From Candidatus Woesearchaeota archaeon (lineage in GTDB: Archaea; Nanobdellota; Nanobdellia; Woesearchaeales; ARS49), in contig JAWCRZ010000004.1 of assembly GCA_038868995.1 (NCBI GenBank), positions 4,967 to 68,966 on the forward strand: DNA of 64,000 nt. The letters are read 5' to 3'. Both the position numbers and the translations under genes were made by a program. The notes beneath the pieces are model-generated. The model worked only from the letters and a program-made list of their open reading frames with translations, ran no database searches and was not told the DNA's origin. Below, one piece after another: positions 7,212-58,852 of the stretch (position 1 is its first letter; every line of letters begins with the position of its first letter).

Positions 7212-7225
7212 AATTGTTCGAAAGC

Positions 7226-25398: not shown

Positions 25399-26004
25399 TT
25401 AATCTTTGACCGTTCTTATTACTGCTTTGTTGCTGTAGCCGACAGGGGTTTCTCCTGCGTAAATTGTAAAGTACGCAATATAGTCCTTTGCTGCCATTCC
25501 TCCTATGTACTCGTCAAACTGGTAGCCGCGTGCAAAAGTAACGTATTTGTCCTGGTAGACGAGCGGAACAACTTCACATGCCGGCGCTGCCGGCACTTTG
25601 TAGTATTCTGCGCATAAGACAACTCGCATATGTGAGACAGGGTTTTCAAAATATGGCCCGAAGCTGCCAGCAAATGTTTTGATGTTTTTTTCTTTCACAG
25701 GTATGTAGTTCAGTCCTTCTGCGTAGCGGGTTGACGGCGGCACTCTGATGTCGTTTACCCAGAAGTTTACTTCTGCAGGCAGTACTTTTTCTATTTCTAT
25801 GCCTGGCGCTGGCGTTTTAAGTTCTGGCGCGCGCGGGGTTTGCTCGCCAATTATTACAGGTGTGGCGCGCGGGGTGATGACTTGGGGCTTTTCTGGTGTC
25901 GGTTGAGCTGGGACTGTAAATGTTGCTGGCTGTCGTGTTGCCGTGTATACAAGAAGGACTATCACTAATATCAGCAGTATTGTTATGATTGCGGTTTTAG
26001 CCAT
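25399..26004 (-). CDS. Module B4: N-terminally anchored protein with a Pro-rich linker
   Basis: It has a TM helix (AIITILLILVIVLLVY), a P/T-rich spacer and a globular domain. It overlaps B3 by 8 nt. Confidence 0.55.
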   Translation of the reverse strand: MAKTAIITILLILVIVLLVYTATRQPATFTVPAQPTPEKPQVITPRATPVIIGEQTPRAPELKTPAPGIEIEKVLPAEVNFWVNDIRVPPSTRYAEGLNYIPVKEKNIKTFAGSFGPYFENPVSHMRVVLCAEYYKVPAAPACEVVPLVYQDKYVTFARGYQFDEYIGGMAAKDYIAYFTIYAGETPVGYSNKAVIRTVKD

Positions 26005-26803
26005 GCTTGCTCCAGGTTGCGATTATCATATGCAGTCGCGCAAAGGCGAGCGCGGGTATTGTTATGAACAGTATGATTGCCAGTGCAATGAGGGGTTTGG
26101 TTGCAAGCCAGTTGAATGGCAGCGAGCACGCGATAAACAGGATGATTGTATTGACGAGGAATGCAGGAATGATTGTTTTTGCATGTTTGATGCCATAGAT
26201 GAACGTGTTCTTAAAGGTTTGTTGCGACGGTATGAGGGCAAAACTGACCTGGCTGAAGTAAAAGATTGCCAAAAAGACGACATACATGAACATTGTGACC
26301 CAGAACGGGCTTATAATAGGGAGTATTGTTGTTGTGCTTCCTGTGCCTATGCTGTAAAGTGAAAATGCAATTATGAGCACGATAAACCAGAACAGGCACA
26401 ATAATGGAAACTTAATCAGCACTGTCTTGAATGGCATTTTTTTTAGTATGCTTTTGTGGGATATGTACCATAATGGTGTTCTGAAAACTGCAAATGCTGC
26501 GAACAAGCTGGTGATGAAAAAGCCCATATGGGCGAGCAGCTCGTGGTATGCCGTCATGAATTCCTCATTCTGCGCCAGCAGTCCTTCCAACTGGTAGAGT
26601 TCTGTCTCCTGCAGTTTTTCCACTTCTTTCGTCATTATTTCACCTGCTCTTGCTGCCGCTTCCGCGCTTGGCACGAAATATGTCAGGTGTATTTGCGTGA
26701 GCACGAACAAAAACACAAACTCTATCAAAACTATCCATATCAAGTACTTCTTGTTTTCCTTAAACGCCAGCCAGGCACGGGGGAGTGTTTGGGATAAAGT
26801 CAT
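25997..26803 (-). CDS. Module B3: polytopic membrane protein (counterpart of A4)
   Basis: About six hydrophobic helices with a helical loop after TM1. Its start abuts the B2 stop (TAAATG). Confidence 0.6.
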   Translation of the reverse strand: MTLSQTLPRAWLAFKENKKYLIWIVLIEFVFLFVLTQIHLTYFVPSAEAAARAGEIMTKEVEKLQETELYQLEGLLAQNEEFMTAYHELLAHMGFFITSLFAAFAVFRTPLWYISHKSILKKMPFKTVLIKFPLLCLFWFIVLIIAFSLYSIGTGSTTTILPIISPFWVTMFMYVVFLAIFYFSQVSFALIPSQQTFKNTFIYGIKHAKTIIPAFLVNTIILFIACSLPFNWLATKPLIALAIILFITIPALAFARLHMIIATWSKHG

Positions 26804-29800
26804 TTAGTTCACCCAGTTCGTATTAACTGGCGGAGTCTTCGGCATTGGATTGGCGGGATAACACATATTTTTGGTATCACTGTCGCCAAAGTTTGGGTCA
26901 CTGTATAGATACTGGTGAACATACTGCATTTCTCTCCTGCCATTCTTCACGGTGAATTCTGGCACCAGATACGCTGCTCTTCCGTCGTCTCCAAATATGT
27001 CGTTGTCGACGCAGGTTACTCGTGGCATGAATGTTTTGCAGTTGTCCTCGCACACGCCTCGCTTGACGGAATACTCAATCACGTCATCGCAGTCTTCGCC
27101 GACTAGATCGTAGCAGAAGTCTTTAAGATTCTTATTGAAGAATATCTTATCAGACGGAAGTCCCTCATATCCCCAGTAAACAGTATAATCTTTGGGATTG
27201 TACCCTATCCACTCATCAGCTGCTATAACTATTACATCTCCGTTCTTTTTATCACAGATTTCGCCTTGGTCGATAGCGCCGTTGCCGCAGGTTGTTGTTT
27301 GTGGTGGGGGGGTTATTGCTTGTTGCGGCGCGGGTGGCTGTTCTTCCACCGCTTCTTTGACTACCTCTTCTGTCTTCTTTGGCACCAGTCCAAGGTCCTT
27401 ATTTAGAGCATTAACTGCAAAAGCGCGCATTATTTTGATACCGTCGAGTTCAAAGGCGACTTGGGAGAGAGCTGCTCTTATATTTTCTGGAGTTGGGCCT
27501 CCAGGCCCGGTCGGAGCACGCTGCGACATTGCATTAAGCCGATACTTGATATCATTCAACCTGTCTACAGAAATCGGTAGGCCGTAAATTGCTATTATAG
27601 ATCCAGGAGGAACTATCGTCTGCACCTTTCTCTCTAAGAAGTTCTTCACTTCTATAGGTACCTCTGTATTTTGTCCTTCATAGGACTTAACAAGCGAGGA
27701 TAACCCTTGTATTTCCAGTTCTTTAGCTTTGATAAAGGACTCTAAATCATTTATAATCTGCCTCGAAGTGAGACTTTGCTGTAACTGGTCGTCACTTTCT
27801 GCCAGTTTTCCTGAAAGATAATTTGCAAAAATATCGTCCTGGTTTCCAGCGTTTTCTATTTTGTCTCTTAGATCGCGGAGCCTTTTGGTAATGGTTTCTC
27901 TAACGACACAACACTTTTTGCCATCTGGGCAATAGATGTAGCTGCCAGTGTGTTCAAAAGAATTGCCTGTGCATTCGGAATCGCATTTGTATAAATCTCC
28001 GTTCTTTGTGCCGCTGCAGTAATTTGCGGCTGGTAGCTTCCAGCAGGTTTGGGTTGTAATGGTCCTGCATTGCTTGCTTGCGTCAGTTATCCAAGGTCCT
28101 GTAAAGATGTCAGCAGAGCATAGATAATAATTGCCTTCAGCGTCTGTTTGTTTGTCCGGGCATGCTTCTTTCTCTCCAGCCGCTGCCGGCAAGAGCGCCA
28201 GAAGCTCGCTTTTCTTGTCTATCGCGTTCGCCAGTATCGGCCTAAACTCTTGCAATTGTTCTCTTATTGCAGTGACATCAGTTGTCTTTGATATTTCTTC
28301 TCTTGCTGAATTCGCACGGAACGGAACGTTTGCCGCTTTGAAAACTGCAGTTACTTGAATTCCAAGAATGCCTTCAAGCTGCGGAATTTCTCCAAGCACC
28401 GCGTATAGTTGATTTGCTGCCTTTGATATACTCTGCAATTCTGTTTTTCCTTCAAGGTTTTTCAAATATTTGGTCTGTAGAACTGCCGCGTCAGCAAGTT
28501 CTGTTGACGCGATTGTGCTGAGCAGTTGCTGTATTGCCATTGAATTCTCTATCTTTATGTCTCCTTCCAGCCATTTGTTAACGTCTGCAAGGTGCTTTTC
28601 TTGTCTTTGCTTGAACGTTGTAACATCCGTTCTCAGTCCCGCCAGTATTTCTGCCAGCCCGAGTATTCCTTCCAGTGGCTCGAGCTCTTTTGCTGTCGCG
28701 CATATTGCGTTGAATGGTATGGTGAAGATTGCTTCTGCTCCCGTATACGGGTCTATTGAGACCTGGTCTGTTGGGCTTCCGTATTGGTCTGCGTCAAATG
28801 CCATTAATTGCATGGTAAACTGTTGTATTGGTCTGTTTTTTACGTCGCCAGCGCACGGGTCTGCTGCGCGTGGTATGTTGAGGTCTATGTGGAGTTGTAT
28901 TGTTTCGTCTGTTGTTGGCAGGACTGCGTCTGGCTTGAGGGTTATTGTAAGAGTGTCTTGTGGGATTGGCGCTTGTCCTGGCGCTGGCGTTATTTGCGGT
29001 GTGCAGGTGATTCTGTTTCCTGCTGTGCCTGTGCAGAGCGCTGGCTGTGCAACATAAAATCCTCCTTTTTCTCCGCCAAGTGTTGTGCTGACGCCTGCAG
29101 TGTATACTGCATAATTCACTTTGTCTGCTTGTCTTGTCAGCTCAAGCACGTATTGCTTGCGTGTTGTTACCGGCCCTGCAAGGCCTACTAATTGCACATT
29201 GTCGATTATTTTGTTGTCGGATATCGCGCTTGGGTTTTTGTTTGTCCATTGCCTGATTGCGAATGGCTTTCCTGGTTCTGTTGTGGTGAACCATTCTTTT
29301 TTGACTTCTATTGGCACGTTATCTGCTGCAAGGCGTTTTGTGTAGTCGCCGTTTGTCTGCAGCAAAATGAGCCCTCTGTCTTTGTTTGTGGCAAGTTCTC
29401 TTCCGCCAGGCCCGATTATTGTGTACTGCAGGTATTTGTTGTATTGTTCTCCTCCCGGGTAGTCCTGCTGCAATGATACGCCGATGTTGAGGTTTTCCTG
29501 GATGCCGTAGGCAGGTCCTTTGTCTTTTAGGTTGTGCGGGTATTCTACCTTGCCCTCTTTGAAGCGTATTCCTCCCGCCGCTTCTCCGAATGAGCATCTG
29601 AAGCTTACTGTGAATGGGTCCCATCTGCAGAACGCTGGCAAGCTGCCGCCTCCGCCTGTCTGCCCGATTGAGCAGGGCTCTGTTTTGTCTTCGCGCATCT
29701 GCTTGTTGGCTTCTTTCCACCTGTACAGCAGATATGCTTTGTCGTAGCGGACATTGCTTTCCCCGCTTCCTGCCTGCATTGTGTAGAATATTTCCTCGCT

Positions 29801-32800
29801 CAGTATTTGGTTTTTCTTTGCGCGAGCTGGCAGGTTCTCTGGCCTGATTACGATGTCGCGCTTGCCTTTGCCTTGGCAGTCGCATCTTCCGTTTTCAAAC
29901 CCGTCTGATTCTTTGCAGCTGTAGTCGTCGCTGCATACCAGGTGGAGTTCTACTTCTGCGTCCGCTCCTGCTGCGAAGAATGCGCCGAAGTGGTACACCC
30001 AGGTTACCAGTCCGCCTGGTCGTGTGGATGGGTTGAATGCTACAAATCTTCTGTTGCATGGCGTCAGTAATGCCTGGCTGTTTAGCGGGATATCGTCTAC
30101 CGACTGGTCGAAGACTGCTCCAAGGTCGAGGTTCCACGTGCCTGTGAATGCCCACATGCATATCGAATGGACGAGTTTTCTGTCTACAAAGACCGCCTTG
30201 TACATGCCTGTTTCGCCGTATCTTCCTTCCACTTCTCTTGACATTTCGCTGCCTGCTGCTACAAGCGCTCCCATTATGTCTCCGCCGCCTTCGCGTTCTA
30301 TTCTGCCTTGTCCTGTGCTGAATTTTTGGGTGAAGCAGGCAAGCGCGTCATACAACAAATCACACACGTATTGGCTTACCAGTGCCTGGCAGACGCCGTT
30401 TTCGCCGTCCCCTGTCAGCAATATCGTGTCAACGCAGCTTTTGACCGCTCCCATAATGTTGCGCCAGAGCTTTAGGTAGCCGATTATTGTTGGGAAGCAG
30501 AGGCATCTGATTGAGTTTACCAGTCCGTCGTTTGGTTTGATGATGTATTCTTTGTCTGGTGTGCCTATTGCTGCAATGACTTGTGCGTATAGTGATTTTG
30601 CGTCAAACTTGCTTGAACCGCTTGCCTTGCTTAAGTCTTCGGCAAATTCGTCGGGTATTGCGCCTGTTTTCCTGTACTTGTCTATTGCCTCTTGTTTGAA
30701 GTTTCTTTCTTGGAAGTCCTCAAATCCAGGGTATTCGACAACATCAAGTTTTTCTGTTAGTTTGGAGCGTTCGCTTGTTGCAAGCACGTCTGGCTTGTCG
30801 CTCTTTTGGAATTCGAGTGTCTTTACGATAATTCCGAGCTTTATTGAATATCCTTGTGATGCGCCTCTCGTGAGTATTCCTTCGAGTGCGTTTTCTCCTC
30901 CTTTTTCCTGCACTATGATGTAGAGTTCTTGGCTTTCTGCAAATTTTTGCAGTTCAAGGTCTTCTGCTACATTGGAGGATATTGTTGTAACTCTAATCGG
31001 CGTCAATGGTGGCATTCCGTTTTTCTCGCAGAAGCCGCCAAGGGCATTGAGGAGTTTGTTGCACTGCACCGGTTCTCCGTCTTGTCCTTCAATCTCGTTC
31101 TTTCCTATCTGTTGTGCCGAGAGGCAGGTGCTTTCTTTTATTTCGTCAAAAGTGTCAAGTCCTTGTCCGAGCGCGCTGACTCCGCAGGCAGAGCTCCATT
31201 CCTGCATGTATTCGTAGCCGCAGCATTCTGGTGTTGCCGGGTGCAGGCCTGCGCAGTTCACTCCTTCTCCTTCTCCAGCAGTGTCTGATTGGTGTTTGAG
31301 CCAGTCGTTGTAAATGCCTTGTATTTGTGTATTGGTGAAGAACAGTCGTGGTGGGATTATGATTCTTTTTGCCCGTGTCTCCCTTGCTCCAATGTCGTTT
31401 GCGTTTTTGAGCACCCAGGCGGCGCAGTCGCTGCCTGTGTAGAGTTTTCCGTTTACGAGGTAGTCCTTGAATTCTTCTTTGGCATTTTCTGCTTTTACTT
31501 CTGTTGGTGTTTGCCTGCCGCGTGTTCGCAAATAATATTGCAGTGATGGGGCTGCCGGGCACATTACCCTGTCGCACACTTGCCTGTATGTTCTGACGAA
31601 TTTTTTGCGGTAGTCCTTCCATTTCGCGCAGGTGTTGCAGTTTTCTGCTGAATCGCTTCCTGCACCGTATTCCGCGTCGCACGCGTTTATTGCTGCCACG
31701 TTGACGTCAAATGCTCCTTCCCCTCCCGAGAGGATGTCTGTGACTTTTTTGAATTCGCAATTGTACTTTTCAAGGAATATTGGCACGTATGAGAGGAATT
31801 GTCCTGCTACGCAGGTGTAAAAGAGGTATTTTCCAATTGTTTGTATTGGCGTGAGTATTTTGTCTATGCCCTCAACTATTTTGCCGAGTGTTCTGCTTAC
31901 TGTTTTTAGCATTCCTGAAGGAAGCACATCTGGCGGTATGCGCCGGTCGATTGCAATGTTGACGTCTATGCACGTCCGTTGTGTCAGGTGCTCGACCACT
32001 TCTTTTTCAAGCGTGCCGGCCACTTTCGGGTCGTACGCCATTTTCATGCTTGTCTCTGTGAAGGGTATTTCGAGCTCGATGAACAGCTTCATGCAGCCCA
32101 AGCCGGGCACGCAGTCGCCGAGCCGGTGATTTGATATTCTTTCTTCCCGCTCAAACATTGTTGCGTTTGCCGGCGCTTGCTCTGTTTTGCCGTCTTTTTC
32201 AGGCAGTTCCCAGGGATCGTCGATTGGCTGGAAGTTTATCTGTATGTAGCCGACGCCTTGGGGCTTGGCGGCGCGTTGTGCCCTGACGTTTGGCGCTCGA
32301 ACCTGGATGAGGTTGTTGTCGTATTCTTTTCTGACGTCTGGCGCGAGAACAAGCGGCTTTACTCTGATGTTTCTGGCATCTATTGTTGCTTTTTGGCCCC
32401 CGCGATACGTGTAATTAAATGCAATGCCTACTTGTTGTATTCCTTCGATGAGCAATCGCGGGTTTAGTATCTCAGGCATCGGCTCGCTTAATTGCACGTC
32501 TATCCACGTTCCGCTGCCGCAGATTGCGTATGTTATTTCGACTTCTGGTGTGCTTGCCTTCAGTCCTGCTGCGTCGATTGCTTCAAGGCGGACTTTGCTT
32601 TTCCATTGTATTCCTGCGTCGATTGATACAGCGCTTCCGGTTATTGATGTTTGCCCTGCCTTGGAGCCGATGGGTCTTTCGAGCTTTACTTTGATTGAGA
32701 AGCTTCCATCCGCGTCTGTTGTCACAGTTTTTTGAGGTCTGCCGTTTACGAATGCTGTGACGCTTCCAGGCTCTGAAAGTTTTCCTTTGACTTCCACTTC

Positions 32801-33451
32801 CTGCCTGTATGATGGTGATAGTTTGTCGAGGTTGGTTGTTTCAAAGCGTGGCGGTCCTGTGTCGTACACCACTCGCTCCTCAACGACTGTTCTGAAACCC
32901 GCTTTGTCGATTGCGATGAACGTGACCATGTTCTCTCCGGGTGTGAGGGCTACCTGGACTTCATTGCTGCCTGCTTGCAGGGTGTGGTTTTTTGGTGTTG
33001 CGTTGCCTGCCTGCACAGTCAGGTTGACCGGCTCTGAGAGTTTGACTTTTGCAGTTGCAGTGGCCGTAGTGACAACCGGCGGTATTGTGATATTCATCAG
33101 CGGCGCTGAATTGTCAACATCCGCCTGGTATGTCTGCGTTGCTGTTTCTCCTGCAAGTTCTGCTTTGACGACTATTGTGCTGCTCGGCTGGAGTGGTACG
33201 TTTTTGAAGAGGAATGTGCTTCCTTCGATTATGTCTTTTTTGGTATCCACTCCGTTGATGGTTATGGTGACTGTTGCGCCTGGCTTTGTTGTTCCGGGGA
33301 TGTCTATGTTTGCAATGCGTGGGTATCGTGGAATCGTTGCATTGACGAAAAGCGGGGTTTCCGCTGCCTGCCCGTTGGTTGCCTGTGCTTCGACTATTGG
33401 AAGCATCACGATGAGCCATGCAAGGCATATTGCAATTATGTTTTTGTTCAT
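26804..33451 (-). CDS. Module B2: giant (2215 aa) secreted Cys-rich protein
   Basis: An uninterrupted 6.6-kb ORF with the signal peptide MNKNIIAICLAWLIVMLPIVEAQA. It has N-terminal Ig-like beta-rich domains and a Cys-patterned core shared with A2. It also has a helical LEGILG-repeat region and one C-terminal CGNGAIDQGEICD repeat. Confidence 0.85.
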   Translation of the reverse strand: MNKNIIAICLAWLIVMLPIVEAQATNGQAAETPLFVNATIPRYPRIANIDIPGTTKPGATVTITINGVDTKKDIIEGSTFLFKNVPLQPSSTIVVKAELAGETATQTYQADVDNSAPLMNITIPPVVTTATATAKVKLSEPVNLTVQAGNATPKNHTLQAGSNEVQVALTPGENMVTFIAIDKAGFRTVVEERVVYDTGPPRFETTNLDKLSPSYRQEVEVKGKLSEPGSVTAFVNGRPQKTVTTDADGSFSIKVKLERPIGSKAGQTSITGSAVSIDAGIQWKSKVRLEAIDAAGLKASTPEVEITYAICGSGTWIDVQLSEPMPEILNPRLLIEGIQQVGIAFNYTYRGGQKATIDARNIRVKPLVLAPDVRKEYDNNLIQVRAPNVRAQRAAKPQGVGYIQINFQPIDDPWELPEKDGKTEQAPANATMFEREERISNHRLGDCVPGLGCMKLFIELEIPFTETSMKMAYDPKVAGTLEKEVVEHLTQRTCIDVNIAIDRRIPPDVLPSGMLKTVSRTLGKIVEGIDKILTPIQTIGKYLFYTCVAGQFLSYVPIFLEKYNCEFKKVTDILSGGEGAFDVNVAAINACDAEYGAGSDSAENCNTCAKWKDYRKKFVRTYRQVCDRVMCPAAPSLQYYLRTRGRQTPTEVKAENAKEEFKDYLVNGKLYTGSDCAAWVLKNANDIGARETRAKRIIIPPRLFFTNTQIQGIYNDWLKHQSDTAGEGEGVNCAGLHPATPECCGYEYMQEWSSACGVSALGQGLDTFDEIKESTCLSAQQIGKNEIEGQDGEPVQCNKLLNALGGFCEKNGMPPLTPIRVTTISSNVAEDLELQKFAESQELYIIVQEKGGENALEGILTRGASQGYSIKLGIIVKTLEFQKSDKPDVLATSERSKLTEKLDVVEYPGFEDFQERNFKQEAIDKYRKTGAIPDEFAEDLSKASGSSKFDAKSLYAQVIAAIGTPDKEYIIKPNDGLVNSIRCLCFPTIIGYLKLWRNIMGAVKSCVDTILLTGDGENGVCQALVSQYVCDLLYDALACFTQKFSTGQGRIEREGGGDIMGALVAAGSEMSREVEGRYGETGMYKAVFVDRKLVHSICMWAFTGTWNLDLGAVFDQSVDDIPLNSQALLTPCNRRFVAFNPSTRPGGLVTWVYHFGAFFAAGADAEVELHLVCSDDYSCKESDGFENGRCDCQGKGKRDIVIRPENLPARAKKNQILSEEIFYTMQAGSGESNVRYDKAYLLYRWKEANKQMREDKTEPCSIGQTGGGGSLPAFCRWDPFTVSFRCSFGEAAGGIRFKEGKVEYPHNLKDKGPAYGIQENLNIGVSLQQDYPGGEQYNKYLQYTIIGPGGRELATNKDRGLILLQTNGDYTKRLAADNVPIEVKKEWFTTTEPGKPFAIRQWTNKNPSAISDNKIIDNVQLVGLAGPVTTRKQYVLELTRQADKVNYAVYTAGVSTTLGGEKGGFYVAQPALCTGTAGNRITCTPQITPAPGQAPIPQDTLTITLKPDAVLPTTDETIQLHIDLNIPRAADPCAGDVKNRPIQQFTMQLMAFDADQYGSPTDQVSIDPYTGAEAIFTIPFNAICATAKELEPLEGILGLAEILAGLRTDVTTFKQRQEKHLADVNKWLEGDIKIENSMAIQQLLSTIASTELADAAVLQTKYLKNLEGKTELQSISKAANQLYAVLGEIPQLEGILGIQVTAVFKAANVPFRANSAREEISKTTDVTAIREQLQEFRPILANAIDKKSELLALLPAAAGEKEACPDKQTDAEGNYYLCSADIFTGPWITDASKQCRTITTQTCWKLPAANYCSGTKNGDLYKCDSECTGNSFEHTGSYIYCPDGKKCCVVRETITKRLRDLRDKIENAGNQDDIFANYLSGKLAESDDQLQQSLTSRQIINDLESFIKAKELEIQGLSSLVKSYEGQNTEVPIEVKNFLERKVQTIVPPGSIIAIYGLPISVDRLNDIKYRLNAMSQRAPTGPGGPTPENIRAALSQVAFELDGIKIMRAFAVNALNKDLGLVPKKTEEVVKEAVEEQPPAPQQAITPPPQTTTCGNGAIDQGEICDKKNGDVIVIAADEWIGYNPKDYTVYWGYEGLPSDKIFFNKNLKDFCYDLVGEDCDDVIEYSVKRGVCEDNCKTFMPRVTCVDNDIFGDDGRAAYLVPEFTVKNGRREMQYVHQYLYSDPNFGDSDTKNMCYPANPMPKTPPVNTNWVN

Positions 33452-35478: not shown

Positions 35479-35493
35479 TGTATTTTCCTTTAA

Positions 35494-35544
35494 TGGCAAA
35501 AAAGAGACCAGCCGGGGCTTTGCTTCGGCGCTGCCTCTTTTTTT
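35494..35544 (-). terminator. Hairpin plus T-run after vapC (terminator-like)
   Basis: The minus strand reads AAAAAAAGAGGCAGC...GCTGGTCTCTTTTTTGCC, with AAAAAAGAG/CTCTTTTTT arms plus an inner CAGC/GCTG pair. It lies between the vapC stop and the B1 start. Confidence 0.3.
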
Positions 35545-35549
35545 ATGAT

Positions 35550-35963: not shown

Positions 35964-36226
35964 AATTTTATTCCCGCCCTACGTGCACGTTCTTCATATT
36001 CTTCTATCGCATGCGTGTTTATTTTGACGCTTTTCTTGCCTATGCTTTTCGCTATTTGTTCGAATGCATGGGCAGCATTGATTTTTTCCTCCTTCTTTAC
36101 AATGAGCTCACCTTCTTTTTCTATGAATGTGACCATGCTTCCGGGCGCGATTTTGTATTCATCCCTGAACACTTTTGGAATTACAACCTGCCCTTTTGGT
36201 CCAACTTTTGTTTTGACTTCAACCAT
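35960..36226 (-). CDS. vapB: AbrB/SpoVT-fold antitoxin
   Basis: It has VGPKGQVVIPKVFRDEYKIAPGSMV, a swapped-hairpin AbrB-type motif. It is 88 aa and lies directly upstream of the PIN gene. Confidence 0.8.
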   Translation of the reverse strand: MVEVKTKVGPKGQVVIPKVFRDEYKIAPGSMVTFIEKEGELIVKKEEKINAAHAFEQIAKSIGKKSVKINTHAIEEYEERARRAGIKL

Positions 36227-36228
36227 TC

Positions 36229-36256
36229 CTTACCTCCGGTAAGAATAATTCTTACC
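36229..36256 (-). promoter_or_regulatory. Candidate VapB operator: three GGTAAG/CTTACC half-sites including a perfect 9+9 palindrome
   Basis: GGTAAGAAT-A-ATTCTTACC lies at 36238-36256, with an extra CTTACC at 36229-36234 overlapping the SD region of vapB. Confidence 0.5.
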
Positions 36257-36299
36257 TGAAGTAAAACTTCCGTATAACTCATATTTTAACCTTCTCATT

Positions 36300-37190
36300 T
36301 TAGTATTGCTTGAATTGTTTGATTACGTGGTAGAGGTATATTCTCAGCCACGCGATGAACAACACAACGAACAACATTGATATTGGCCGCATTATAGCGG
36401 TTGTTTGAAATAATCTGAATATTTGATAGAGCACTATGTAAATTACAAATGCGTACGTGTATGGAACTATGAGCAGGTGGAGTTTTGAGAGCCCCCAGCC
36501 GAGCCCGTTGGCAATGCTGTATCCCTTTTTCCGTGTTTGCATGTAAAGCGTGTGCATTATTGCTGTAAAATACGCAGCAACGCCCAGTATGAGGGCTATG
36601 CTGGCTCCGGCAATTTGTGTTCCGTAATTTTTTGTTCCGATTAGCATAAAGATGAATATTGGAAGCCAGATTGCCCACCAGCCGAGGTTTAAAAGCGCCC
36701 ATTGTCCGAAGAATTTCTTGTCTGCTTTCTGTCTTGCTATTGTTGTCCAGATGTATCCGCGGGAGAGGACGTATGCTATGAATACAAGTGCAAACAGCAC
36801 GAGCAGTCCGATGTAGAGATAGCTGACAAAGCCCTGCAATGATGCCAGGCTTTGTGCTGCAATTTCCGGGTTTGCGAGCGCTTCCTTGTTGACAAACCCT
36901 GCTGTTTGTGCCGCTGTTGCTTTTGCCTGGAGCCGCCATTGGAAGAAGTATACCGCTCCAAAGACGAAAAGCCAGTAGAGCGCGTCGCAGAGTGCGGTGG
37001 TGAAGAGTGTTTTCCAGCGGGCGAGTGCTGTTATTGCTGTATCCAGCATTTTTTGCGTGTAAGCTTCTTTTGCTGCGAGTAGCACAATGCCTGCAATGCC
37101 GAGCCCTATCCATCCTTGCAGTTTGCTGAAATAGGCGAGTGCTGCTATTATTATTAGCAATCCTCCGATTATGCGGGGTGTGTGTTTCAT
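36300..37190 (-). CDS. Module A4: polytopic membrane protein (counterpart of B3)
   Basis: I chose ATG 37190 because it gives an ATGA overlap with A3 and removes an R/S/T-rich non-membrane leader. There are about seven hydrophobic helices. Confidence 0.7.
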   Translation of the reverse strand: MKHTPRIIGGLLIIIAALAYFSKLQGWIGLGIAGIVLLAAKEAYTQKMLDTAITALARWKTLFTTALCDALYWLFVFGAVYFFQWRLQAKATAAQTAGFVNKEALANPEIAAQSLASLQGFVSYLYIGLLVLFALVFIAYVLSRGYIWTTIARQKADKKFFGQWALLNLGWWAIWLPIFIFMLIGTKNYGTQIAGASIALILGVAAYFTAIMHTLYMQTRKKGYSIANGLGWGLSKLHLLIVPYTYAFVIYIVLYQIFRLFQTTAIMRPISMLFVVLFIAWLRIYLYHVIKQFKQY

Positions 37191-38896
37191 ACAAGTGCTC
37201 CTGGCGTGTCTGCCACTGTCGTGCCTGGCGCGGGTGCTGGCGGTTGTGCTGCGCCCGGCGCTGCTATTTCTGTTGGCGGTCCTGTGTATTCCACGAATGG
37301 TACGCATAACTGGCCGACCATGCTGGAGTGTGCTGCGTGTCCTGATGGAAGCCGTGGGTCAAAGGTTAGGCATACCGCATTGTATTCTGTTGCGCTGAAT
37401 TTGTAAATGTCATCACGCGCTGTTTCCAGGTATTTTATGCTTTGGTCGTTTTTCCACCAGCGTGCCTGCGCTATTGGCGTTCCGTAGCTTGAGTTTAGTG
37501 CTTCTCCCACTCTTCTGAAGATGAGGTTGTAGTTTAGGTCTTTTTCATTTTCTGCGTTGTTTGTCACGCTGTACTGTACGTGGTATAGCCGGAGTTTTAT
37601 TTTGCCGAGTACTCTTGGGTCAAAGGCGGGGTTTGTCAGGTTTATCAACACGCCTTTTATGACTGTGTAGTTGCCGAATAGGTCGAGCATTTGCTGTCGT
37701 GTCATTCCTTCCACTTCTATTGCCTGGCTTCTTTCTGCGTTTAGTGATGCGCTGCTGACAAACCTGCCTCCTGGTCCTCTTCCTGCGAGCACGTTGTCCG
37801 CGCTTATTTTGTAGATGTTGCCGCAGATTGTCGAGACAGCGCAGTTTGTTATTCCTGCTGCGAGGCAGAACTGTTGTTGTATTCTGTTTTTTCTCTCTTG
37901 CACTTCCTTTTCGTATTTTGGCCAGAATAGCGAGGTTAATTGCCGAAGGCCAGCATATTCGTAATACGCCCTGATGACTCTTCCCACTTTCTGCCAGGTG
38001 CTGTACGTCTTCCACGCGGCTGTAAAGCTGAGCGAGTGTTCTCTGATGATTTGGTCGCGCAGCCGGTTTTTTTCTGCTGTGGTTAGCCCTTCCACTTCAT
38101 CTATTTTGTTTACTTCGACTTCAAGGTCTTGTGTTTGAACATTCCATATTGCCTTGTAGTATGTGATATCGCCAACAGTAAATTTAATTTCTTCTGCTAT
38201 GCGCGTGCTGAATGGGTCATCTGTCCTTGATGGCTGGTAATTTGCAGTGAGCGTGCCAACATTCTCGTTTTTTTTGTTGTATATTGCAGTGTTTGTTTCT
38301 GACAGCACGTATCTTTTTTCCTCAGTGTCTTTATCTTTTTTGGTTGCAACCGTGTACTTTTCTGTTTTTGTGATTTGCGAGCCGGGCACTGTCTTCCAGT
38401 CCCCTTCGCATTTTGTCAGCCCGCTTCCGCAGATTTTTGTCACTTGGTCGTATTTTTTCGTCAGTCCATCATCCGCTATGGTGATGGTTGTTTCTGTGGT
38501 TGTTTTGTATTCTTCAAAAACATTGTCTTCTTTTTTAGTAGTGGTTTTGGTGTAGGTGAATTTTCCATTACTATATTGGTATTTTTGCTTGCCAAGCGCT
38601 GCTGCCATGATTGCCGGGATTTCCCTTAAATTATTGGGGACTATTTTATCCTTCTCAGGATTGATGAGTATTGTTCCTTTTGGCACGTCTTCGTTTTTGT
38701 ATTTCTGGTTGTCAGCAACAACAACATAATAATTGTCTGTTATCCGTCCTTTTTCTTTCGCTCTGCCGTCATGTGCTGTTGGCTTTCCTTCCTCGTCTGT
38801 TAGTGTTGGTTTTGAATAGATGCCGCTTTTCTGCGCTTCCACGGCTATTGTGCCGAGCAAAAGTGCCAGTATTGCTATCAAAATTATTTTTCTCAT
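37187..38896 (-). CDS. Module A3: secreted 569-aa protein
   Basis: The signal peptide is MRKIILIAILALLLGTIAVEAQ. There are ATGA overlaps at both ends and a Pro/Ala-rich C-terminus. Confidence 0.75.
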   Translation of the reverse strand: MRKIILIAILALLLGTIAVEAQKSGIYSKPTLTDEEGKPTAHDGRAKEKGRITDNYYVVVADNQKYKNEDVPKGTILINPEKDKIVPNNLREIPAIMAAALGKQKYQYSNGKFTYTKTTTKKEDNVFEEYKTTTETTITIADDGLTKKYDQVTKICGSGLTKCEGDWKTVPGSQITKTEKYTVATKKDKDTEEKRYVLSETNTAIYNKKNENVGTLTANYQPSRTDDPFSTRIAEEIKFTVGDITYYKAIWNVQTQDLEVEVNKIDEVEGLTTAEKNRLRDQIIREHSLSFTAAWKTYSTWQKVGRVIRAYYEYAGLRQLTSLFWPKYEKEVQERKNRIQQQFCLAAGITNCAVSTICGNIYKISADNVLAGRGPGGRFVSSASLNAERSQAIEVEGMTRQQMLDLFGNYTVIKGVLINLTNPAFDPRVLGKIKLRLYHVQYSVTNNAENEKDLNYNLIFRRVGEALNSSYGTPIAQARWWKNDQSIKYLETARDDIYKFSATEYNAVCLTFDPRLPSGHAAHSSMVGQLCVPFVEYTGPPTEIAAPGAAQPPAPAPGTTVADTPGALV

Positions 38897-41800
38897 TCTT
38901 CCATCTCGTCCTCGATGTCTTCCATTCTGTCGCACCAGTTGTTGCCTACTGTGCCGAAGGCATCCTTGTTTTTGCGGTATGTTTTTACTGCCGCTACCGC
39001 CTCTCCAACTGTTGAGACCACTTTGAGTGTTGAGCAGGCGATGAAACCGGTGGGCGCGGTGTCTATTGACCGGCAGGGGATTGTGCAGACCGTGCCGATT
39101 GCAGTCGTGAACAATGCCACCGGGTTTGTGATTAGGTCAAGCACCATATTAATCAGCCGGTCGAAGAACGCGGCAAAGGGGATTAAGCTGAATATTTCGC
39201 CTATGACGAATGCGCACATCATATAGCCGTACATTTCATTGCAGAAGCTTGCGGGGTAGCCGGAAAGTTTGACGTCGTCGTGCAGGCAGACCGCTTTGAA
39301 ACAGCGTATCTGGCGGAGTTTGTCAAGGTTGTAAATGATGCCCGGCAGGCACATGCACATGATGCTGAGTATCAATGAGTTTTTGACGTCGAGGTCGAGC
39401 ATTCCTGAGCCGGTGAAGTCAAGGTTTTGCCACAGTGCGCGCATGTCTGAGCACCAAGGCATTCCTCCACCAATGTATGCCTGTATTCCTGTTCCTTTGC
39501 CTGAAACAGCCGCGCAGTTGACTAATGAGCATACCGAGTCAAGGAATCCAATTATGCCTTCGTAGCTGCCCGCCCAGGCCTCTTCAACATCGCATGTATT
39601 GATTGCTGCACCGCCAACCGCCTTGCCTGCTGGCGCTCCGATGCCTGTTGCCTGTAGTGTTGCCGATGTGATTCCGAGCGCTATCGATACAAGATATAGT
39701 GCGCTGATGATGTTTGTCAGGAGGACTTTAACTTGACATAACAGTTCTCCGTAGTGGAGTATTTTTCTGAGGTCGCTTATCCAGTCGGCGTCCGCCAGTC
39801 CTTTCTTCATTGCCTTCCTTATTTGGTTGTCAATGTTTTGGTTAAGCTCTCCAAGCGGGTTGTCGTAGAACTTGATGGTCATATTGACAGGCAGTTCCTG
39901 TGGCTCTGGTGAGACGTAGTATGCAGTCCTGTTTGCGGTTGTAACTGCGCGTTTTGAATATACGGAAATCGGGCAGTTTATGTTTAACTCGTTGACGTAG
40001 TAGTCGCGTGGCTCTAATTTCAGGAACAAATATGGGTTTTTGCTGTTTTCGAAATTGTTTGTTACGTAGATGTCGTTGAGAGTGAGTTCTATGTCGCCGT
40101 CACATTCGTCAGGCATTGTTGGTCCTGATATGGCAAGTGTGGTAATATCTTGTCTTGGTGTTTGAAGGTCCACTCTGCAGGTTACTATGGGCGGAATTAG
40201 CGAGGCTGTTTTTCTGTCTACAACCGATGGGCTGCACACGACAGGCGGGTTTGGATTCCAATAAGCGGCGTTTGTTTCATTGTCTATTCCGTAAATTTCC
40301 AGCGTCGTGTTTGTTTTTGCAGTGTTGTTGGCGTCGTCTGCAAATGTGAAAGTGAAGTATGCGGTGTATGGACCGCTGATGTCCACTCTGCTTTCAAAGA
40401 CGCAATCCCTGCTTACGTTGCCGGAGTCAGTGCAGCTGGTCGGGCTGGTTCTGGTTTCTCCTCCCACGTCGCTGAAGTTTGCATATGCTGTTGAGAAGTT
40501 CGCGCTTCTTACCGTGTATTGGATGAAATTGCCCCTTACTGCACCGCCTTTGTATTCAAGCCCTTGCTGTCCTGTGATGACTCTGAAATCAATTATCTGT
40601 GGCGGGTATGGCCCTGTGTTGTCATAGATGATGTTGTAGTCTGCGGTTGTTGCGATGCGGTTGCCGAGGTCGTCTGAAGTGTCAGCGAGCACAGTTATCT
40701 TGTAGGTTCCTTCTGCAACCCAGGCAGGCGGAGTGAGAAGCCAGAGGCATCTCCACGTTGCGCCTGAGTAGCGTGAGCACCCATCTGCCTGCGCGTTGCT
40801 GCTCATTCCGAGCGCGCTTAGGTCAAGATACACCCGGCTGCTGGTGAACCCGATGCCTTCTGCTCCCGTGTTGTCCCGGTCTTCAATCTCGAGGACAATT
40901 GGGGCGCCGTAGCCGAATAATGGCAATCCGCCGCGTGTTGCTTCTGAGACAATGTTTTTTACTGTTGGCGGAGTGTCGTCCGCCCTGATAATGCAGGGGA
41001 AGGTTTTTCTTGCCTCATTGCCGAGAATGTCTTTTGCCGTGACTGTTATCTGGCAGGGGCTGACTTCGCTGACTGGTATGTCTCTCCAGCTGTAGAGGTC
41101 TCCTGATGAGAGGTCTGGCGCGAGAATTGTCGGCAAGGTCGGGTTGAGCTGGTGGAAGTCGGCGAAGACCGTTGTTCCGTCAACGCCTCCGTCATCGGCA
41201 ATTGTCACGGTGACTGTTGCGATGCGTTCTTCGCCTGAATGCACATGCGTCAGCACAAATCCTTCCTCGTCCAAAATGGACAATTTCTCAATAGTTGGCG
41301 GGGCCTTGTCAACCCTGACGGTCTTGCAGCGGGGCGCGCTGGCGTAGTTCGCATTGTCGACTGCAGTGGCGCAGACCTGGTTTGTTCCTGCTTTTTGCAG
41401 GGTGAGTGTGAATGTGTTGTCAGCGATGCACTTTCCTTCTCCGGAATCAACTACGCTTTGGTTGCCTGCTGTTATAGTGACGCTTTTGATTCCTCCGCAT
41501 TGTTCGGTGCTTCCATACAGGAGGGCGTAGTCCTCTGCGACGTACGATACCGACACTTGTCCGCTGGTAAGATTTGGCTCTACGGAAAAGGACTTGATGA
41601 CTGGCGCGTTGGCGTCGGCAATGAGTGTTTTTGTCTCGCTTCCCACTATGTTGCCGTCATCATCACGCAGCTCTATCGTGAAATCAATCGGCTCGTATGC
41701 TTCAAAGTCGGGCTCGCGGAATATGCAGGTGTGGTAGCCACCGGTGCTGGGGGTGCAGCTGTCAAACGGCGCATAGCTGTCTTCAACGTACACGCGCACC

Positions 41801-41994
41801 TGGTCGTTGCTGATGATGTCCTCACCTGGGATTTTGACAAGAACTTCTATTGTCAGCTCGTCTTGTGTTCTTGCTACTCCTTTGCTGCTTCCTTTTCCGT
41901 TGAGTTGTTGTATGCTGAGTTCTTGTGCCGCGACAAAAGGTATTGACACTATCAGAACCATCATGAACAGGGAGATGGTGTGGAGTTTTTTCAT
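38893..41994 (-). CDS. Module A2: 1033-aa secreted protein with Ig-like repeats and a hydrophobic Cys-patterned C-terminal region
   Basis: The signal peptide is MKKLHTISLFMMVLIVSIPFVAAQ. Domain boundaries repeat (NAPVIKSFSV, KAPPTIEKLSI, DTPPTVKNIVS, GPYPPQIIDFRV). The C-terminal block with CMCLPGIIYNL...FCNEMYGYMMCAF is shared with B2. Confidence 0.85.
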   Translation of the reverse strand: MKKLHTISLFMMVLIVSIPFVAAQELSIQQLNGKGSSKGVARTQDELTIEVLVKIPGEDIISNDQVRVYVEDSYAPFDSCTPSTGGYHTCIFREPDFEAYEPIDFTIELRDDDGNIVGSETKTLIADANAPVIKSFSVEPNLTSGQVSVSYVAEDYALLYGSTEQCGGIKSVTITAGNQSVVDSGEGKCIADNTFTLTLQKAGTNQVCATAVDNANYASAPRCKTVRVDKAPPTIEKLSILDEEGFVLTHVHSGEERIATVTVTIADDGGVDGTTVFADFHQLNPTLPTILAPDLSSGDLYSWRDIPVSEVSPCQITVTAKDILGNEARKTFPCIIRADDTPPTVKNIVSEATRGGLPLFGYGAPIVLEIEDRDNTGAEGIGFTSSRVYLDLSALGMSSNAQADGCSRYSGATWRCLWLLTPPAWVAEGTYKITVLADTSDDLGNRIATTADYNIIYDNTGPYPPQIIDFRVITGQQGLEYKGGAVRGNFIQYTVRSANFSTAYANFSDVGGETRTSPTSCTDSGNVSRDCVFESRVDISGPYTAYFTFTFADDANNTAKTNTTLEIYGIDNETNAAYWNPNPPVVCSPSVVDRKTASLIPPIVTCRVDLQTPRQDITTLAISGPTMPDECDGDIELTLNDIYVTNNFENSKNPYLFLKLEPRDYYVNELNINCPISVYSKRAVTTANRTAYYVSPEPQELPVNMTIKFYDNPLGELNQNIDNQIRKAMKKGLADADWISDLRKILHYGELLCQVKVLLTNIISALYLVSIALGITSATLQATGIGAPAGKAVGGAAINTCDVEEAWAGSYEGIIGFLDSVCSLVNCAAVSGKGTGIQAYIGGGMPWCSDMRALWQNLDFTGSGMLDLDVKNSLILSIMCMCLPGIIYNLDKLRQIRCFKAVCLHDDVKLSGYPASFCNEMYGYMMCAFVIGEIFSLIPFAAFFDRLINMVLDLITNPVALFTTAIGTVCTIPCRSIDTAPTGFIACSTLKVVSTVGEAVAAVKTYRKNKDAFGTVGNNWCDRMEDIEDEMEE

Positions 41995-44141
41995 GTAATC
42001 ACCGGGTATATTCTGTCAAGGTTTGATTGCGCGTACATGTTGACCTTGTCTATCTGGTTGAGGTCTTCTGCAATGCGCTGGTCTTCGGGAATCCTGTCGA
42101 TTGCAATGATGAATTGCTTGAATTCAATCTTGCTTTTTCCGCGGAGCATTGAGCTTGTTATTTCGTATTCGTATTCAGCGCCTCCGTAGGGGAATGGCGA
42201 TGTTTCGTTGAACACTATCGGTTTTTGAGGCACCCAGAAGCATTTTTTCTTGCTTCCAATTAGCTTTTTGATTTTGAAGCATCTCTCGTCCGGGGGTATG
42301 ATGAGTTCTTTTCTGAGGAAGCTGTTGATATTTATTGTGTAATTGCCTGGAATGATTGTTAGTTCTCCTATCTCGTCGCCTTCGAGGGAAACAACCGAGC
42401 TGAAAGGTTCTTCCCATGAGTTTCCTTTTCTGACAAGTTGTATTGATGTGTCCTGCTCTTCAGGCGGTCTTAATGAGCCTCCTTCCCTGAAGTCCCATTG
42501 TCCTCGCTTGCTTTGTTTTGTTAAGGCGTAATTTCTGATGGTCGCGTTCAAAATGCGCACCGGCTCGAGAAGTAGTTCTGTGCTGAGTGGTTCTTCCCGT
42601 TGCGTGTCAAGCGGTGCTGAATAGCTCGCATAGCCGTCTTTTGTCACTCTTAGGATTCCGCCTATGCATCGTGGGAATTTTCCGGCAAAATTGCCTTCGC
42701 GTGTCTGCCCAATGGTGCAGCTTTGCTGTCCGCAAATATAGCTGATGCTTGCATCACTTAACCCTTTCAGGTTTTCGGCGTCCTTGACAAAAATGTTAAT
42801 CATTCCTGAAGTGCGCTGTGCCGGGTCACAAAATATTGACGGGATTGTACGTGCTGCTGCCGCTTGGAATTCAGGTATGTCTGTGGTGAACGCCTCGGCG
42901 TCCCTCAGGTTTTGTTCGAGCATGAAGTTGAAGCTGTACCCTTCCTGGTTGAATGCATCTGGATTTCTTATTTCCACAAGCACCGGATAGCTGAAATCAT
43001 AGGCAAACTCGTACCTGTTGATTGTTAGTGGAAGTATTGCAAAGTTGGTGGCTGTGTCTGCCCTGCATAGCTCACCGTTGCAGTTTAACTGGAAGTATGG
43101 CTTCCACCAGTCGAGGTAGCTGAAGCGCACGGTAAGGTCTGGGTGGCTTTCGTTGAGGGGTATGAAGAATTGCCGGTTGTAGAAGTTCTCAAAGCTTTCC
43201 GGGTCTCTAACGTCTGCAGGTGCTGATATGTAGCGGTAGTTGCGCACGCTGGATGTCTGTATGATTGGAATGTAGGCAGCGATGATGTCCTGAAGTTTTT
43301 TTCCAACCTCGCTTTTAATCCAGAACACTCCCGGCTTTGGAGGGCCTACTTCAAAGTCTCTTGGCGGGGGCAGTTTTTGTGGGTCAACGTCGCTGAAGCT
43401 GTAGATGAGCGTTTTGGTCGCGCTTTCGAGGAAGCGGTTGTCTTTCTGGTAATTGGTGAGCGTTGTTGCGAGGTTGTAAATTTCGCGCAGGTTGAGGTCA
43501 ATGCTTACATAAGTGTCTTCGATGTCAAAACTCTGGCTGCCGCAGACAGCACGAAGGGGGTATTTGCCTACAAAGAATACGTCTTCTTGTGCAACGTTCG
43601 CAGTGACTTTTGGCTCGCCGAGTTCTTGCACGGTGCAGCCGCGTTTTTGATAGTCCTCAAAGGTACCTAGGCAGCTGCGGAGGTTGTTTGTTACGTATTC
43701 GTCAAGCTGGCTTTCAATGTTGATTTGTCCTTCCCCTCTTCTTAGCCCGGGCCTTTTTGAGCCGAATACGCAGTTTGGCGCTTTACAGTTGTTGCTGCTT
43801 TGCAGGTGCCACCAGTATGCAACTGCAGGTCCTGCTTTTGGCGACATTTGGACTGCTTCTCCTTCTGTTGGTGACAGGATGTTGTAAGTCAGGTATTTCT
43901 GGTCTACATAACCGCCTGAGTCGCCGATTTTTCGTAGTCCGTCTGTTGCGAGGCGTTTGATGCAGCTTTCAACAAAGTCGCGCAATGGCTGCACTTCTTG
44001 TGGAACTGTTGCAATTGTTGGGCGTGCTGCTTCGAATGGCTTCCTTGTTTCGCGTGTGCTTAGGTAGATGGCAGTGCCGATAATGAAAAGGAGAACGATG
44101 CCGATGATGATGAATATGGTTATTTGTCCCCTTTTTGTCAT
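41991..44141 (-). CDS. Module A1: 716-aa protein with a class III (prepilin-like) signal, paralog of B1
   Basis: The N-terminus is MTKRGQITIFIIIGIVLLFIIG. An ATGA overlap joins it to A2. A GTG at 44177 is an alternative start. Confidence 0.8.
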   Translation of the reverse strand: MTKRGQITIFIIIGIVLLFIIGTAIYLSTRETRKPFEAARPTIATVPQEVQPLRDFVESCIKRLATDGLRKIGDSGGYVDQKYLTYNILSPTEGEAVQMSPKAGPAVAYWWHLQSSNNCKAPNCVFGSKRPGLRRGEGQINIESQLDEYVTNNLRSCLGTFEDYQKRGCTVQELGEPKVTANVAQEDVFFVGKYPLRAVCGSQSFDIEDTYVSIDLNLREIYNLATTLTNYQKDNRFLESATKTLIYSFSDVDPQKLPPPRDFEVGPPKPGVFWIKSEVGKKLQDIIAAYIPIIQTSSVRNYRYISAPADVRDPESFENFYNRQFFIPLNESHPDLTVRFSYLDWWKPYFQLNCNGELCRADTATNFAILPLTINRYEFAYDFSYPVLVEIRNPDAFNQEGYSFNFMLEQNLRDAEAFTTDIPEFQAAAARTIPSIFCDPAQRTSGMINIFVKDAENLKGLSDASISYICGQQSCTIGQTREGNFAGKFPRCIGGILRVTKDGYASYSAPLDTQREEPLSTELLLEPVRILNATIRNYALTKQSKRGQWDFREGGSLRPPEEQDTSIQLVRKGNSWEEPFSSVVSLEGDEIGELTIIPGNYTININSFLRKELIIPPDERCFKIKKLIGSKKKCFWVPQKPIVFNETSPFPYGGAEYEYEITSSMLRGKSKIEFKQFIIAIDRIPEDQRIAEDLNQIDKVNMYAQSNLDRIYPVIT

Positions 44142-44206
44142 GTATAGAGCGCCCCAGTGATGACTATTGGAAACCACCTTTTTTTGTATAGGGAACTCTT
44201 GCTTCA

Positions 44207-44223
44207 GGGTTTATAAATGTTGC
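44207..44223 (-). promoter_or_regulatory. Putative BRE/TATA promoter of module A (minus strand GCAACATTTATAAACCC)
   Basis: This 17-mer is 16/17 identical to the rps6e promoter at 45768-45784. The TATA centre lies about 36 nt from GTG 44177 and about 72 nt from ATG 44141. Confidence 0.45.
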
Positions 44224-47036: not shown

Positions 47037-47049
47037 TTAAATAAAAAAT

Positions 47050-58847: not shown

Positions 58848-58852
58848 TTAAA

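Follow-up and report, generated by a model that had tools for sequence, protein, structure and literature searches.

The 64-kb window analyzed here, a stretch of contig JAWCRZ010000004.1 from a Candidatus Woesearchaeota archaeon, carries about 19 kb of minus-strand sequence (25399-44141) that is made up of two gene modules, A and B, for predicted surface proteins. From gene structure, paralogy and synteny we read this region as an operon in the chromosomal core of Woesearchaeota (DPANN, class Nanoarchaeia), present in two anciently duplicated versions. Each module encodes a putative stalk protein (A1/B1), a large partner predicted to be exported (A2/B2) and a polytopic membrane protein (A4/B3). 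We give about even chances to the reading that each module builds a surface complex, in which A4/B3 would be the membrane dock, A1/B1 the anchored stalk and A2/B2 a large, secreted, disulfide-rich head. The original prediction, made from the letters of the window, had proposed a “candidate undescribed cell-surface apparatus”; the modules, their coupling and their synteny were borne out, and the apparatus itself is what we infer from them.

Woesearchaeota and related lineages belong to the most widespread of the archaea that have not been cultured. Their genomes measure about 1 Mb, and a life attached to other cells is assumed for them; to our knowledge, the molecules with which they attach are not known. 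An operon of about 19 kb takes up much of so small a genome, and it is kept intact between species. It offers a specific candidate, open to testing, for the principal structure of the envelope or of host contact in a major lineage of archaea. At least three protein families of considerable size, missing from current domain databases, are defined by it, and in metagenomes the stalk family by itself counts thousands of members, divergent and without names.

Structure, paralogy and conservation of the gene cluster

Nine consecutive open reading frames (ORFs) run along the minus strand between 25399 and 45302, in the gene order U1-A1-A2-A3-A4-B1-B2-B3-B4. The conserved cluster opens with U1 (44397-45302; 301 amino acids [aa], bitopic). 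Module A comprises the putative stalk protein A1 (41991-44141; 716 aa), the predicted Sec-exported proteins A2 (38893-41994; 1033 aa) and A3 (37187-38896; 569 aa, an accessory), and A4 (36300-37190; 296 aa), a membrane protein with seven hydrophobic segments. Module B comprises B1 (33448-35478; 676 aa), a putative stalk protein and paralog of A1; B2 (26804-33451; 2215 aa), a predicted Sec-exported giant without a membrane anchor; B3 (25997-26803; 268 aa), a membrane protein with six predicted transmembrane (TM) helices; and, as its last gene, the bitopic B4 (25399-26004; 201 aa). Stop and start codons overlap as ATGA at A1/A2 (41991-41994), A2/A3 (38893-38896), A3/A4 (37187-37190) and B1/B2 (33448-33451), the B2/B3 junction reads TAAATG, and B3 and B4 overlap by 8 nucleotides (nt). 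All eight ORFs and six junctions of the original prediction were thereby confirmed, and the start codons chosen in it match the N-termini of orthologs. A bitopic protein with immunoglobulin (Ig)-like features had been placed just upstream of the modules; this is U1, which belongs to the conserved cluster. The pilin-like paralogs placed there as well (46416-47802) are cut off from the cluster by the genes for ribosomal protein S6e and peptidyl-tRNA hydrolase PTH2.

The two modules are paralogous. BLASTP aligned A1 and B1 over about 610 aa at 25% identity (E = 3e-32), including the motifs from which their homology had been predicted. Comparison of the A1 and B1 family profiles by hhalign, with family alignments built from related loci, gave a full-length match (probability 100, E = 3e-87). 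Pairwise BLASTP was insignificant for A4 against B3 (E = 0.29) and for the Cys block of A2 against B2 (E = 0.03), and family profiles were therefore needed for these pairs. A4 and B3 then matched over nearly their full length (probability 97.3, E = 1.9e-11), and the YIW/PLW segment formerly cited for their relationship carries the sole invariant residue, a Trp. A2 and B2 matched in the signal peptide and Ig-like N-terminus (E = 4.6e-11; 4.2e-9 in a repeat comparison). In a focused comparison they also matched in the predicted Cys block (A2 844-1005 against B2 937-1116; probability 87.5, E = 3.6e-6), the common core of which is SLIxSxxCxCLPxI...R.I...C. The relationships of A2/B2 and A4/B3 are thus significant, but at the profile level only. 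No relatives within the cluster were found by hhalign for A3, B4 or U1. A3 was rejected as a piece of B2, the similarity being limited to signal peptides; B4 was rejected as kin of A3, A2 or B2, with nothing past the signal peptides; and U1 had no support as kin of any other cluster protein.

Conservation was estimated by searching one genome per GTDB species with the B1 profile. The ORFs of the 45 loci obtained were labeled by BLAST and then by family hidden Markov models (HMMs). Organism labels are record titles, and the many “Methanosarcinales” labels on otherwise Woesearchaeota-like contigs are probably mislabeling. The order (U1)-A1-A2-A3-A4-B1-B2-B3-B4 was found in every locus with a long enough contig, down to 28% identity, so that gene order is strongly kept among these species-level genomes. 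Genes of module A lie directly upstream of B1 in 38 of the 45 loci; in four others, each with 10 kb of upstream sequence, module B has no module A beside it. The 4-nt overlaps are also kept in other species, at A1/A2 in 21 of 25 loci, at A2/A3 in 15 of 25, at A3/A4 in 19 of 31 and at B1/B2 in 18 of 42, where six more loci show an overlap of 8 nt. A4 and B1 themselves overlap in 6 of 36 loci, which points to one operon in these six. In several genomes the flanks are housekeeping genes (threonyl-tRNA synthetase ThrRS, PTH2, S6e and NOG1).

In a neighbor-joining tree of 22 A1 and 44 B1 sequences, A1 and B1 form two separate clades. The duplication thus predates the sampled diversity and, as judged from these sequences, is ancient. 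A homolog search with A1 returned 139 proteins, nearly all of 700-760 aa; those with names are all “hypothetical” or “uncharacterised,” and the named organisms are mostly Woesearchaeota or Nanoarchaeia. In an exhaustive search of 1.84 billion metagenome cluster representatives, the A1/B1 profile gave 1742 matches at E ≤ 1e-30, a number that rose to 9111 at E ≤ 1e-3. None of ten distant family members that were looked up is informatively named.

Modules are also found in other arrangements. In a marine metagenome-assembled genome (MAG; locus L048), a third module, with its genes permuted, is inserted between U1 and module A (2167-9181). Its genes encode an A2-like protein of 1067 aa, a 172-aa ORF, an A4-like protein of 254 aa and an A1-like protein of 854 aa that groups next to the A1 clade. 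Distant relatives have just a pair of A1-like and A2-like genes (L049, 9840-15805, and the P0118 locus). The permuted module of L048, the lone pair of L049 and the loci with module B only indicate that the module is the unit, and the recurring core, as read from these loci, is a stalk and a giant partner, usually with a polytopic protein. At the L049 and P0118 loci a small ORF of 54 aa shares 4 nt with the start of the A1-like gene; from its sequence it was read as ribbon-helix-helix-like and is possibly a dedicated regulator. On the 774-kb chromosome OZ246410.1 (locus L001, 224-6071, minus strand), a 247-aa protein with similarity to the N-terminal region of A1/B1 (HMM E = 1e-45) overlaps an ORF of 1703 aa that lies upstream of the main cluster, and the two may be another, reduced stalk-plus-giant pair.

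The encoded proteins and alternative readings

The AlphaFold2 model of A1, built on an alignment of 89 sequences, has a mean predicted local distance difference test score (pLDDT) of 91 and a predicted TM-score (pTM) of 0.81. It opens with a helix of 35 residues (3-37), followed by a low-confidence linker (38-50) and a second helix (51-74). An alpha/beta domain spans about 50-330 and includes a four-strand antiparallel meander (169-214); three beta-sandwich domains (about 335-415, 447-541 and 563-680) and then C-terminal helices follow. In Foldseek searches against PDB and BFVD, only the beta-sandwich parts were matched, with query-normalized TM-scores below 0.2, and the matches included CnaB/transthyretin-like domains, Gram-positive pilins, a TIE adhesin and SlaB. 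The alpha/beta domain had no match in the whole-chain search against PDB and viral structures. The top match being the TIE protein, a thioester-domain adhesin was considered and rejected, because the approximately 400 aligned columns were judged to be explained by the three beta-sandwiches of A1.

Hydropathy gives A1 and B1, as well as B4 and U1, one TM helix each. A1 starts MTKRG/QITIFIIIG and B1 starts MKKRG/QITIFIIIG, the slash marking a putative cleavage site. Among the 89 sequences, position -2 is K or R in 87, position -1 is G, A or S in 88 and position +1 is Q in 88; in the helix that follows, T is kept in 86, F in 85 and G in 86. The consensus start, M-x-K-[KR]-[GAS]-Q-[IVL]-T-x-F-I-I-I-G, is built like a class III (prepilin) site, at which cleavage is putative, and the N-terminal helix is far more conserved than mere anchoring requires. 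If A1 and B1 were processed by a prepilin peptidase, the proteins with class III signals would extend to 700-aa stalks with giant partners.

Such a site could mean that the cluster is an accessory set of a type IV pilus. A1/B1, together with the protein encoded at 47050-47802, would be cleaved at [KR]G/Q and inserted as minor pilins or tip adhesins by machinery encoded elsewhere, and A2/B2 would be adhesive cargo. We consider this unlikely. The conserved N-terminus, with its nearly invariant Q, has the form of the site in the Epd pilins of Methanococcus maripaludis that are processed by EppA (PMC4371748). The long first helix of the A1 model, with the second helix and the antiparallel meander further on, would also suit a pilin. 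Type IV pilus loci (CpaF, TadC, PilA and FlaF) have been reported as conserved in Woesearchaeota (PMC11291902). In the census of Makarova et al. (2016; PMC4858521), large “adhesin or minor pilin” proteins with class III signals are frequent in the pilus loci of archaea; these, like the S-layer-like genes described there, lie inside ATPase/TadC loci. However, when the A1/B1 N-termini were compared with curated pilin and archaellin N-terminal HMMs, no match was found at E ≤ 0.1 for the full-length proteins or at E ≤ 10 for the isolated 51 aa, and the +5 Glu of EppA substrates is absent. Neither the window nor some 50 related loci, each of about 20 kb, contained an A24 peptidase, a PilB/TadC-type ATPase or TadC. 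Helix 3-37 of the model is followed by the low-confidence linker and is not seen to pack on a sheet, and no type IV pilin was among the top hits of the whole-chain Foldseek search with A1.

The beta-sandwich matches bear on a second alternative, a two-component S-layer or envelope lattice with A1/B1 as SlaB-like stalks and A2/B2 as a SlaA-like canopy, in which the two modules would make a mixed or an alternative lattice. We rate this one lower, as rather improbable. The co-translated pair of an N-terminally anchored protein and a large, anchorless, secreted partner, joined by a 4-nt overlap, is what such a lattice would need, and Foldseek matched A1 to SlaB (8qox_B, E = 1.4e-6, probability 1.0). 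In addition, this single-copy locus is universal, has a core position and takes a large share of a small genome, and assembly of an S-layer needs no nucleoside triphosphatase (NTPase). The TM-score to SlaB, however, is 0.13-0.19, as for a generic beta-sandwich match, and the anchor is N-terminal in A1/B1 but C-terminal in SlaB. No S-layer family was matched in Pfam or NCBIfam, and S-layer proteins are seldom so conserved or so rich in Cys. Furthermore, MAGs of Woesearchaeota have been reported to contain separately annotated, highly expressed S-layer genes (PMC11606122).

A2, A3 and B2 carry Sec-type signal peptides, as read from their sequences. The predicted signal-peptidase-I sites (A2 VAA/Q, A3 VEA/Q, B2 VEA/Q) leave Gln at +1, as does [KR]G/Q in A1/B1, and Q is the commonest +1 residue in these families (A2, 20 of 30; A3, 7 of 26; B2, 16 of 35). 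An N-terminal pyroglutamate on all exported subunits is a possibility. The first 700 aa of A2 are Ig-like repeats with VD..PP linkers. The C-terminal part of about 330 aa (700-1033) is a conserved Cys-rich domain with invariant Cys in the family alignment and, by hydropathy, two strongly hydrophobic helices (751-775 and 926-952). B2 begins with Ig/fn3-like repeats, followed by a conserved Cys-rich core (about 480-1600) that includes the block common to A2. Its last 600 aa or so are hypervariable, with coiled coils and a CGNG..CD unit, and by hydropathy it has no hydrophobic helices and no anchor. Some A2 homologs carry Big_3_3 (Pfam). For the B2 family, the only Pfam matches are Glucodextran_B, fn3, Big_13 and Big_6 (22 members), and the only PDB profile matches are of fn3 type (profile positions 108-333). 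No sequence relatives of A2 700-1033 or of the B2 core were found in PDB or Pfam. Elsewhere in the window, at 17927-21999 (plus strand), lies a gene for a 1056-aa exported protein with 7.7% Cys and repeated CGNGK.D..EQCD units, which has no Pfam match and is preceded by a 301-aa protein with a similar N-terminus. Its CGNG..CD unit occurs once near the B2 C-terminus.

The hydrophobic helices of A2 allow a third alternative by analogy, namely that the disulfide-rich helical domain of A2/B2 would be membrane-active (pore-forming or fusogenic) and would be presented to the host membrane by the stalk. DPANN ectosymbionts are in direct cell contact with their hosts (PMC11291902), and the AlphaFold2 model of the A2 C-terminus is all-helical, with long helices. 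That model is poor, however (pLDDT 57); it has no significant Foldseek match (best E = 0.67), and ClyA and MakA appear in the list far below significance. B2 has the homologous block but lacks the hydrophobic helices. With analogy as its basis, a host-directed effector of this kind is very unlikely.

In the joint alignment of 38 A4/B3 sequences, besides the invariant Trp, one Arg is nearly invariant; there is no conserved Cys or His, and B3 is without any Asp. These sequences had no match in Pfam, nor their profile in PDB. A4/B3 thus appear, from the alignment, to be without a plausible catalytic set or catalytic signatures. An A24 prepilin peptidase was rejected, since two catalytic Asp (one of the GxGD type) would be expected in it. 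A sortase or an archaeosortase/exosortase was rejected for the lack of conserved Cys and His and of a family match. Among the exported cluster proteins, none ends in a TM-helix sorting signal (LPXTG and PGF-CTERM were sought). As for the remaining proteins, the conservation profile of A3 shows a hypervariable, T/K-rich N-terminal half and a conserved C-terminal half (about 300-569), and A3 HMM matches were found in most loci. By hydropathy, B4 begins with a TM helix, which a Pro-rich linker joins to a small conserved domain, and U1 has a cytoplasmic helical N-terminus, a TM helix at 78-96 and an Ig-like ectodomain. B4 orthologs directly follow B3 in at least 16 loci, and U1 orthologs lie directly upstream of A1 in at least 13. 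U1 orthologs have a weak Big_9 match; A3 and B4, extra orthologs included, have no family match in Pfam or NCBIfam.

Pfam, NCBIfam and PHROGs were searched with all proteins, and Pfam also with the extra orthologs of A3, B4 and U1. For the cluster proteins these curated libraries gave only generic Ig/fn3-type matches, and PDB sequence profiles of the A1, A2, A4/B3 and B2 families found nothing but fn3 domains. No ATPase, peptidase or secretin family was matched by the cluster proteins in Pfam or NCBIfam, in agreement with the prediction that no ATPase, prepilin peptidase or secretin-type gene is embedded. Across Pfam, NCBIfam, PHROGs, PDB and Foldseek, generic beta-sandwich domains were all that was found, and no characterized S-layer, adhesin or pilus family, again as predicted. 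The fate of the original prediction had been made to hang on the alignment scores of the paralog pairs, on hits to a characterized system and on synteny in related genomes; each was checked, and each came out in its favor. A description of this cluster was not found in the searchable literature. DPANN-specific families are mostly unannotated, membrane-bound or extracellular (Castelle et al. 2021).

That there is no system at all, the genes being unrelated neighbors for surface proteins or a mobile or viral island, is scarcely credible: none of the proteins has a known function and a toxin-antitoxin pair lies inside the region, but gene order and overlaps have been kept in 45 species, A1 and B1 fall into reciprocal clades, the GC content is similar to that of the remainder of the window, and a viral or mobile origin was rejected on the lack of PHROGs matches and of relatives among viral contigs (IMG/VR) and on the fixed position beside housekeeping genes.

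A candidate stalk-and-head complex

The reading that we favor is the complex of dock, stalk and head outlined at the start. In it, the stop/start overlaps would set the subunit ratios, and all parts would leave via Sec. A4/B3 in the membrane would dock the stalk by binding the conserved TM helix of A1/B1, and A1/B1 would project the beta-sandwich stalk and hold the anchorless giant A2/B2 at the surface, with A3, B4 and U1 as accessories. The fast-evolving distal parts, i.e., the C-terminus of B2 and the N-terminal half of A3, would face the environment or the host cell. The conservation profile, with its conserved base and variable tip, was counted in favor of this arrangement. As the cluster encodes no NTPase, and as none of some 50 loci contained an ATPase, TadC or a peptidase, assembly outside the membrane would be spontaneous self-assembly, as has been proposed for S-layers and archaeal threads. 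The role is likely envelope construction and/or cell-to-cell (host) contact, because the biology of DPANN archaea is inferred to be episymbiotic (PMC11291902, PMC8204110).

What the analysis shows is the structure and coupling of the genes, their paralogy and synteny, the export signals, the modeled fold of A1 and the lack of known families; from these we infer the physical complex, its surface location, the docking roles and the function. Several points weigh against this reading. Physical association is deduced from operon structure, and surface location from signal peptides and hydrophobic segments. The two hydrophobic helices of A2 could be real TM segments, given the poor model of its C-terminus, and the topology would then change. 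A4/B3 could be enzymes or transporters with an unrecognized signature. The prepilin-like site suggests a possible dependence on pilus machinery encoded elsewhere, in which case self-assembly would be wrong. Such high sequence conservation is unusual among host-specific adhesins. Finally, N-glycosylation sequons are only mildly enriched (0.3-1.0 per 100 aa), too weakly to serve as evidence.

We are more tentative about carrying the dock-stalk-head reading further, to a specific device. Under this proposal, which we regard as possible but less than probable, the cluster would be an NTPase-independent, Nanoarchaeia-specific stalk-and-head machine and the principal device of host attachment, perhaps opening a connection. 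It would be built of three families without characterized relatives, and the prepilin-like helix would have been co-opted as an assembly interface in the membrane and would not be a pilus subunit.

Genomic surroundings and comparison with known systems

A TATA-like box, TTTATAA, lies at 44211-44217 (minus strand), 76 nt upstream of the A1 ATG, and another, ATATAAAT, at 35548-35555 (minus strand), 77 nt upstream of the B1 ATG, both as read from the sequence. They are putative archaeal promoters, one per module in this genome, and the near-equal spacing hints at separate but similar promoters for modules A and B. The 0.8-kb gap between A4 and B1 holds a toxin-antitoxin pair (35550-36226, minus strand), with a PIN-domain toxin (PF01850, E = 4.7e-16) and a MazE/AbrB-type antitoxin (PF04014, E = 5.7e-10). 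Its insertion point is the exact A4/B1 boundary, at which A4 and B1 abut or overlap in other genomes. A related pair is present at locus L032, but upstream of B1 and on the opposite strand.

Housekeeping genes flank the cluster in the window: ThrRS, PTH2 and S6e on its upstream side, a NOG1-type GTPase on its downstream side. Beyond S6e and PTH2, the genes at 46416-47036 (minus strand; 206 aa) and 47050-47802 (minus strand; 250 aa) encode small paralogs (BLASTP E = 4e-14). The 250-aa protein starts MKRGQIGIALVILG, with a class-III-like site [KR]G/Q as in A1/B1. Both may be small pilins proper; only a few other genomes have them close to the cluster. At 54655-61994 (plus strand), five ORFs, named from their translations, encode two large BatA/VWA-like membrane proteins, a 272-aa ORF, a MoxR-type AAA ATPase and a DUF58-like protein; this looks like an operon of the Bat/aerotolerance type, a second envelope-associated gene set in the window. 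Antisense in B3 (26029-26120, plus strand), ARAGORN called a 92-nt “tRNA-His (anticodon atg),” which is probably a false positive, because Rfam matched no RNA family in the 64-kb window; the window is otherwise without a tRNA gene.

Among known systems, the Epd pili of M. maripaludis share with A1/B1 the site [KR][GA]/Q[IVL] and the hydrophobic helix, with KGQI, KGQV, KGQL and RAQI in the former (PMC4371748) and KRG/QI in the latter. In contrast to the Epd pili, the present cluster has no EppA/PibD peptidase, ATPase or TadC at the locus, A1/B1 lack the +5 Glu and any pilin HMM match and are proteins of about 700 aa with three beta-sandwiches, and the A2/B2 and A4/B3 families are unknown in pilus loci. 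The type IV pilus and coiled-coil loci of DPANN described by Hamm et al. (2024; PMC11291902) are conserved in cluster-2 DPANN, Woesearchaeota included, and have likewise been proposed to serve host interaction. They contain CpaF, TadC, PilA/FlaF and sigma-1-like coiled-coil proteins, none of which is present here, and they occupy another genomic position.

CnaB/transthyretin-like beta-sandwiches follow one another in the C-terminal half of A1, which resembles Gram-positive CnaB pilins and adhesins (BcpA, SpaA/SpaC and TIE; Foldseek E from 1e-7 to 1e-4). This likeness is of the domain fold only, and the present cluster has no sortase and no LPXTG or PGF-CTERM signal. The threads of Sulfolobus acidocaldarius (Saci_0406 cluster) likewise come from a small, ATPase-free cluster, are exported by Sec and are thought to assemble without external energy (PMC9715654), features that for the present cluster are read from the genes alone. 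The thread subunits, however, are small, joined by donor-strand complementation and independent of PibD; they have no homology to the proteins described here, and no giant or polytopic partner has been shown for threads. SlaA and SlaB of the Sulfolobales are also encoded by adjacent genes, form an anchored beta-sandwich stalk with a very large secreted partner, and need no NTPase for assembly, as far as the genes alone can tell for the cluster. They differ in having no sequence homology to it, in the low structural similarity and in the end of the stalk at which the anchor lies. To such a pair the present module adds a polytopic membrane protein, Cys-rich proteins and a duplication. Functionally, the cluster most resembles the archaeal surface systems built of an anchor and a large partner, and its conserved families are new.

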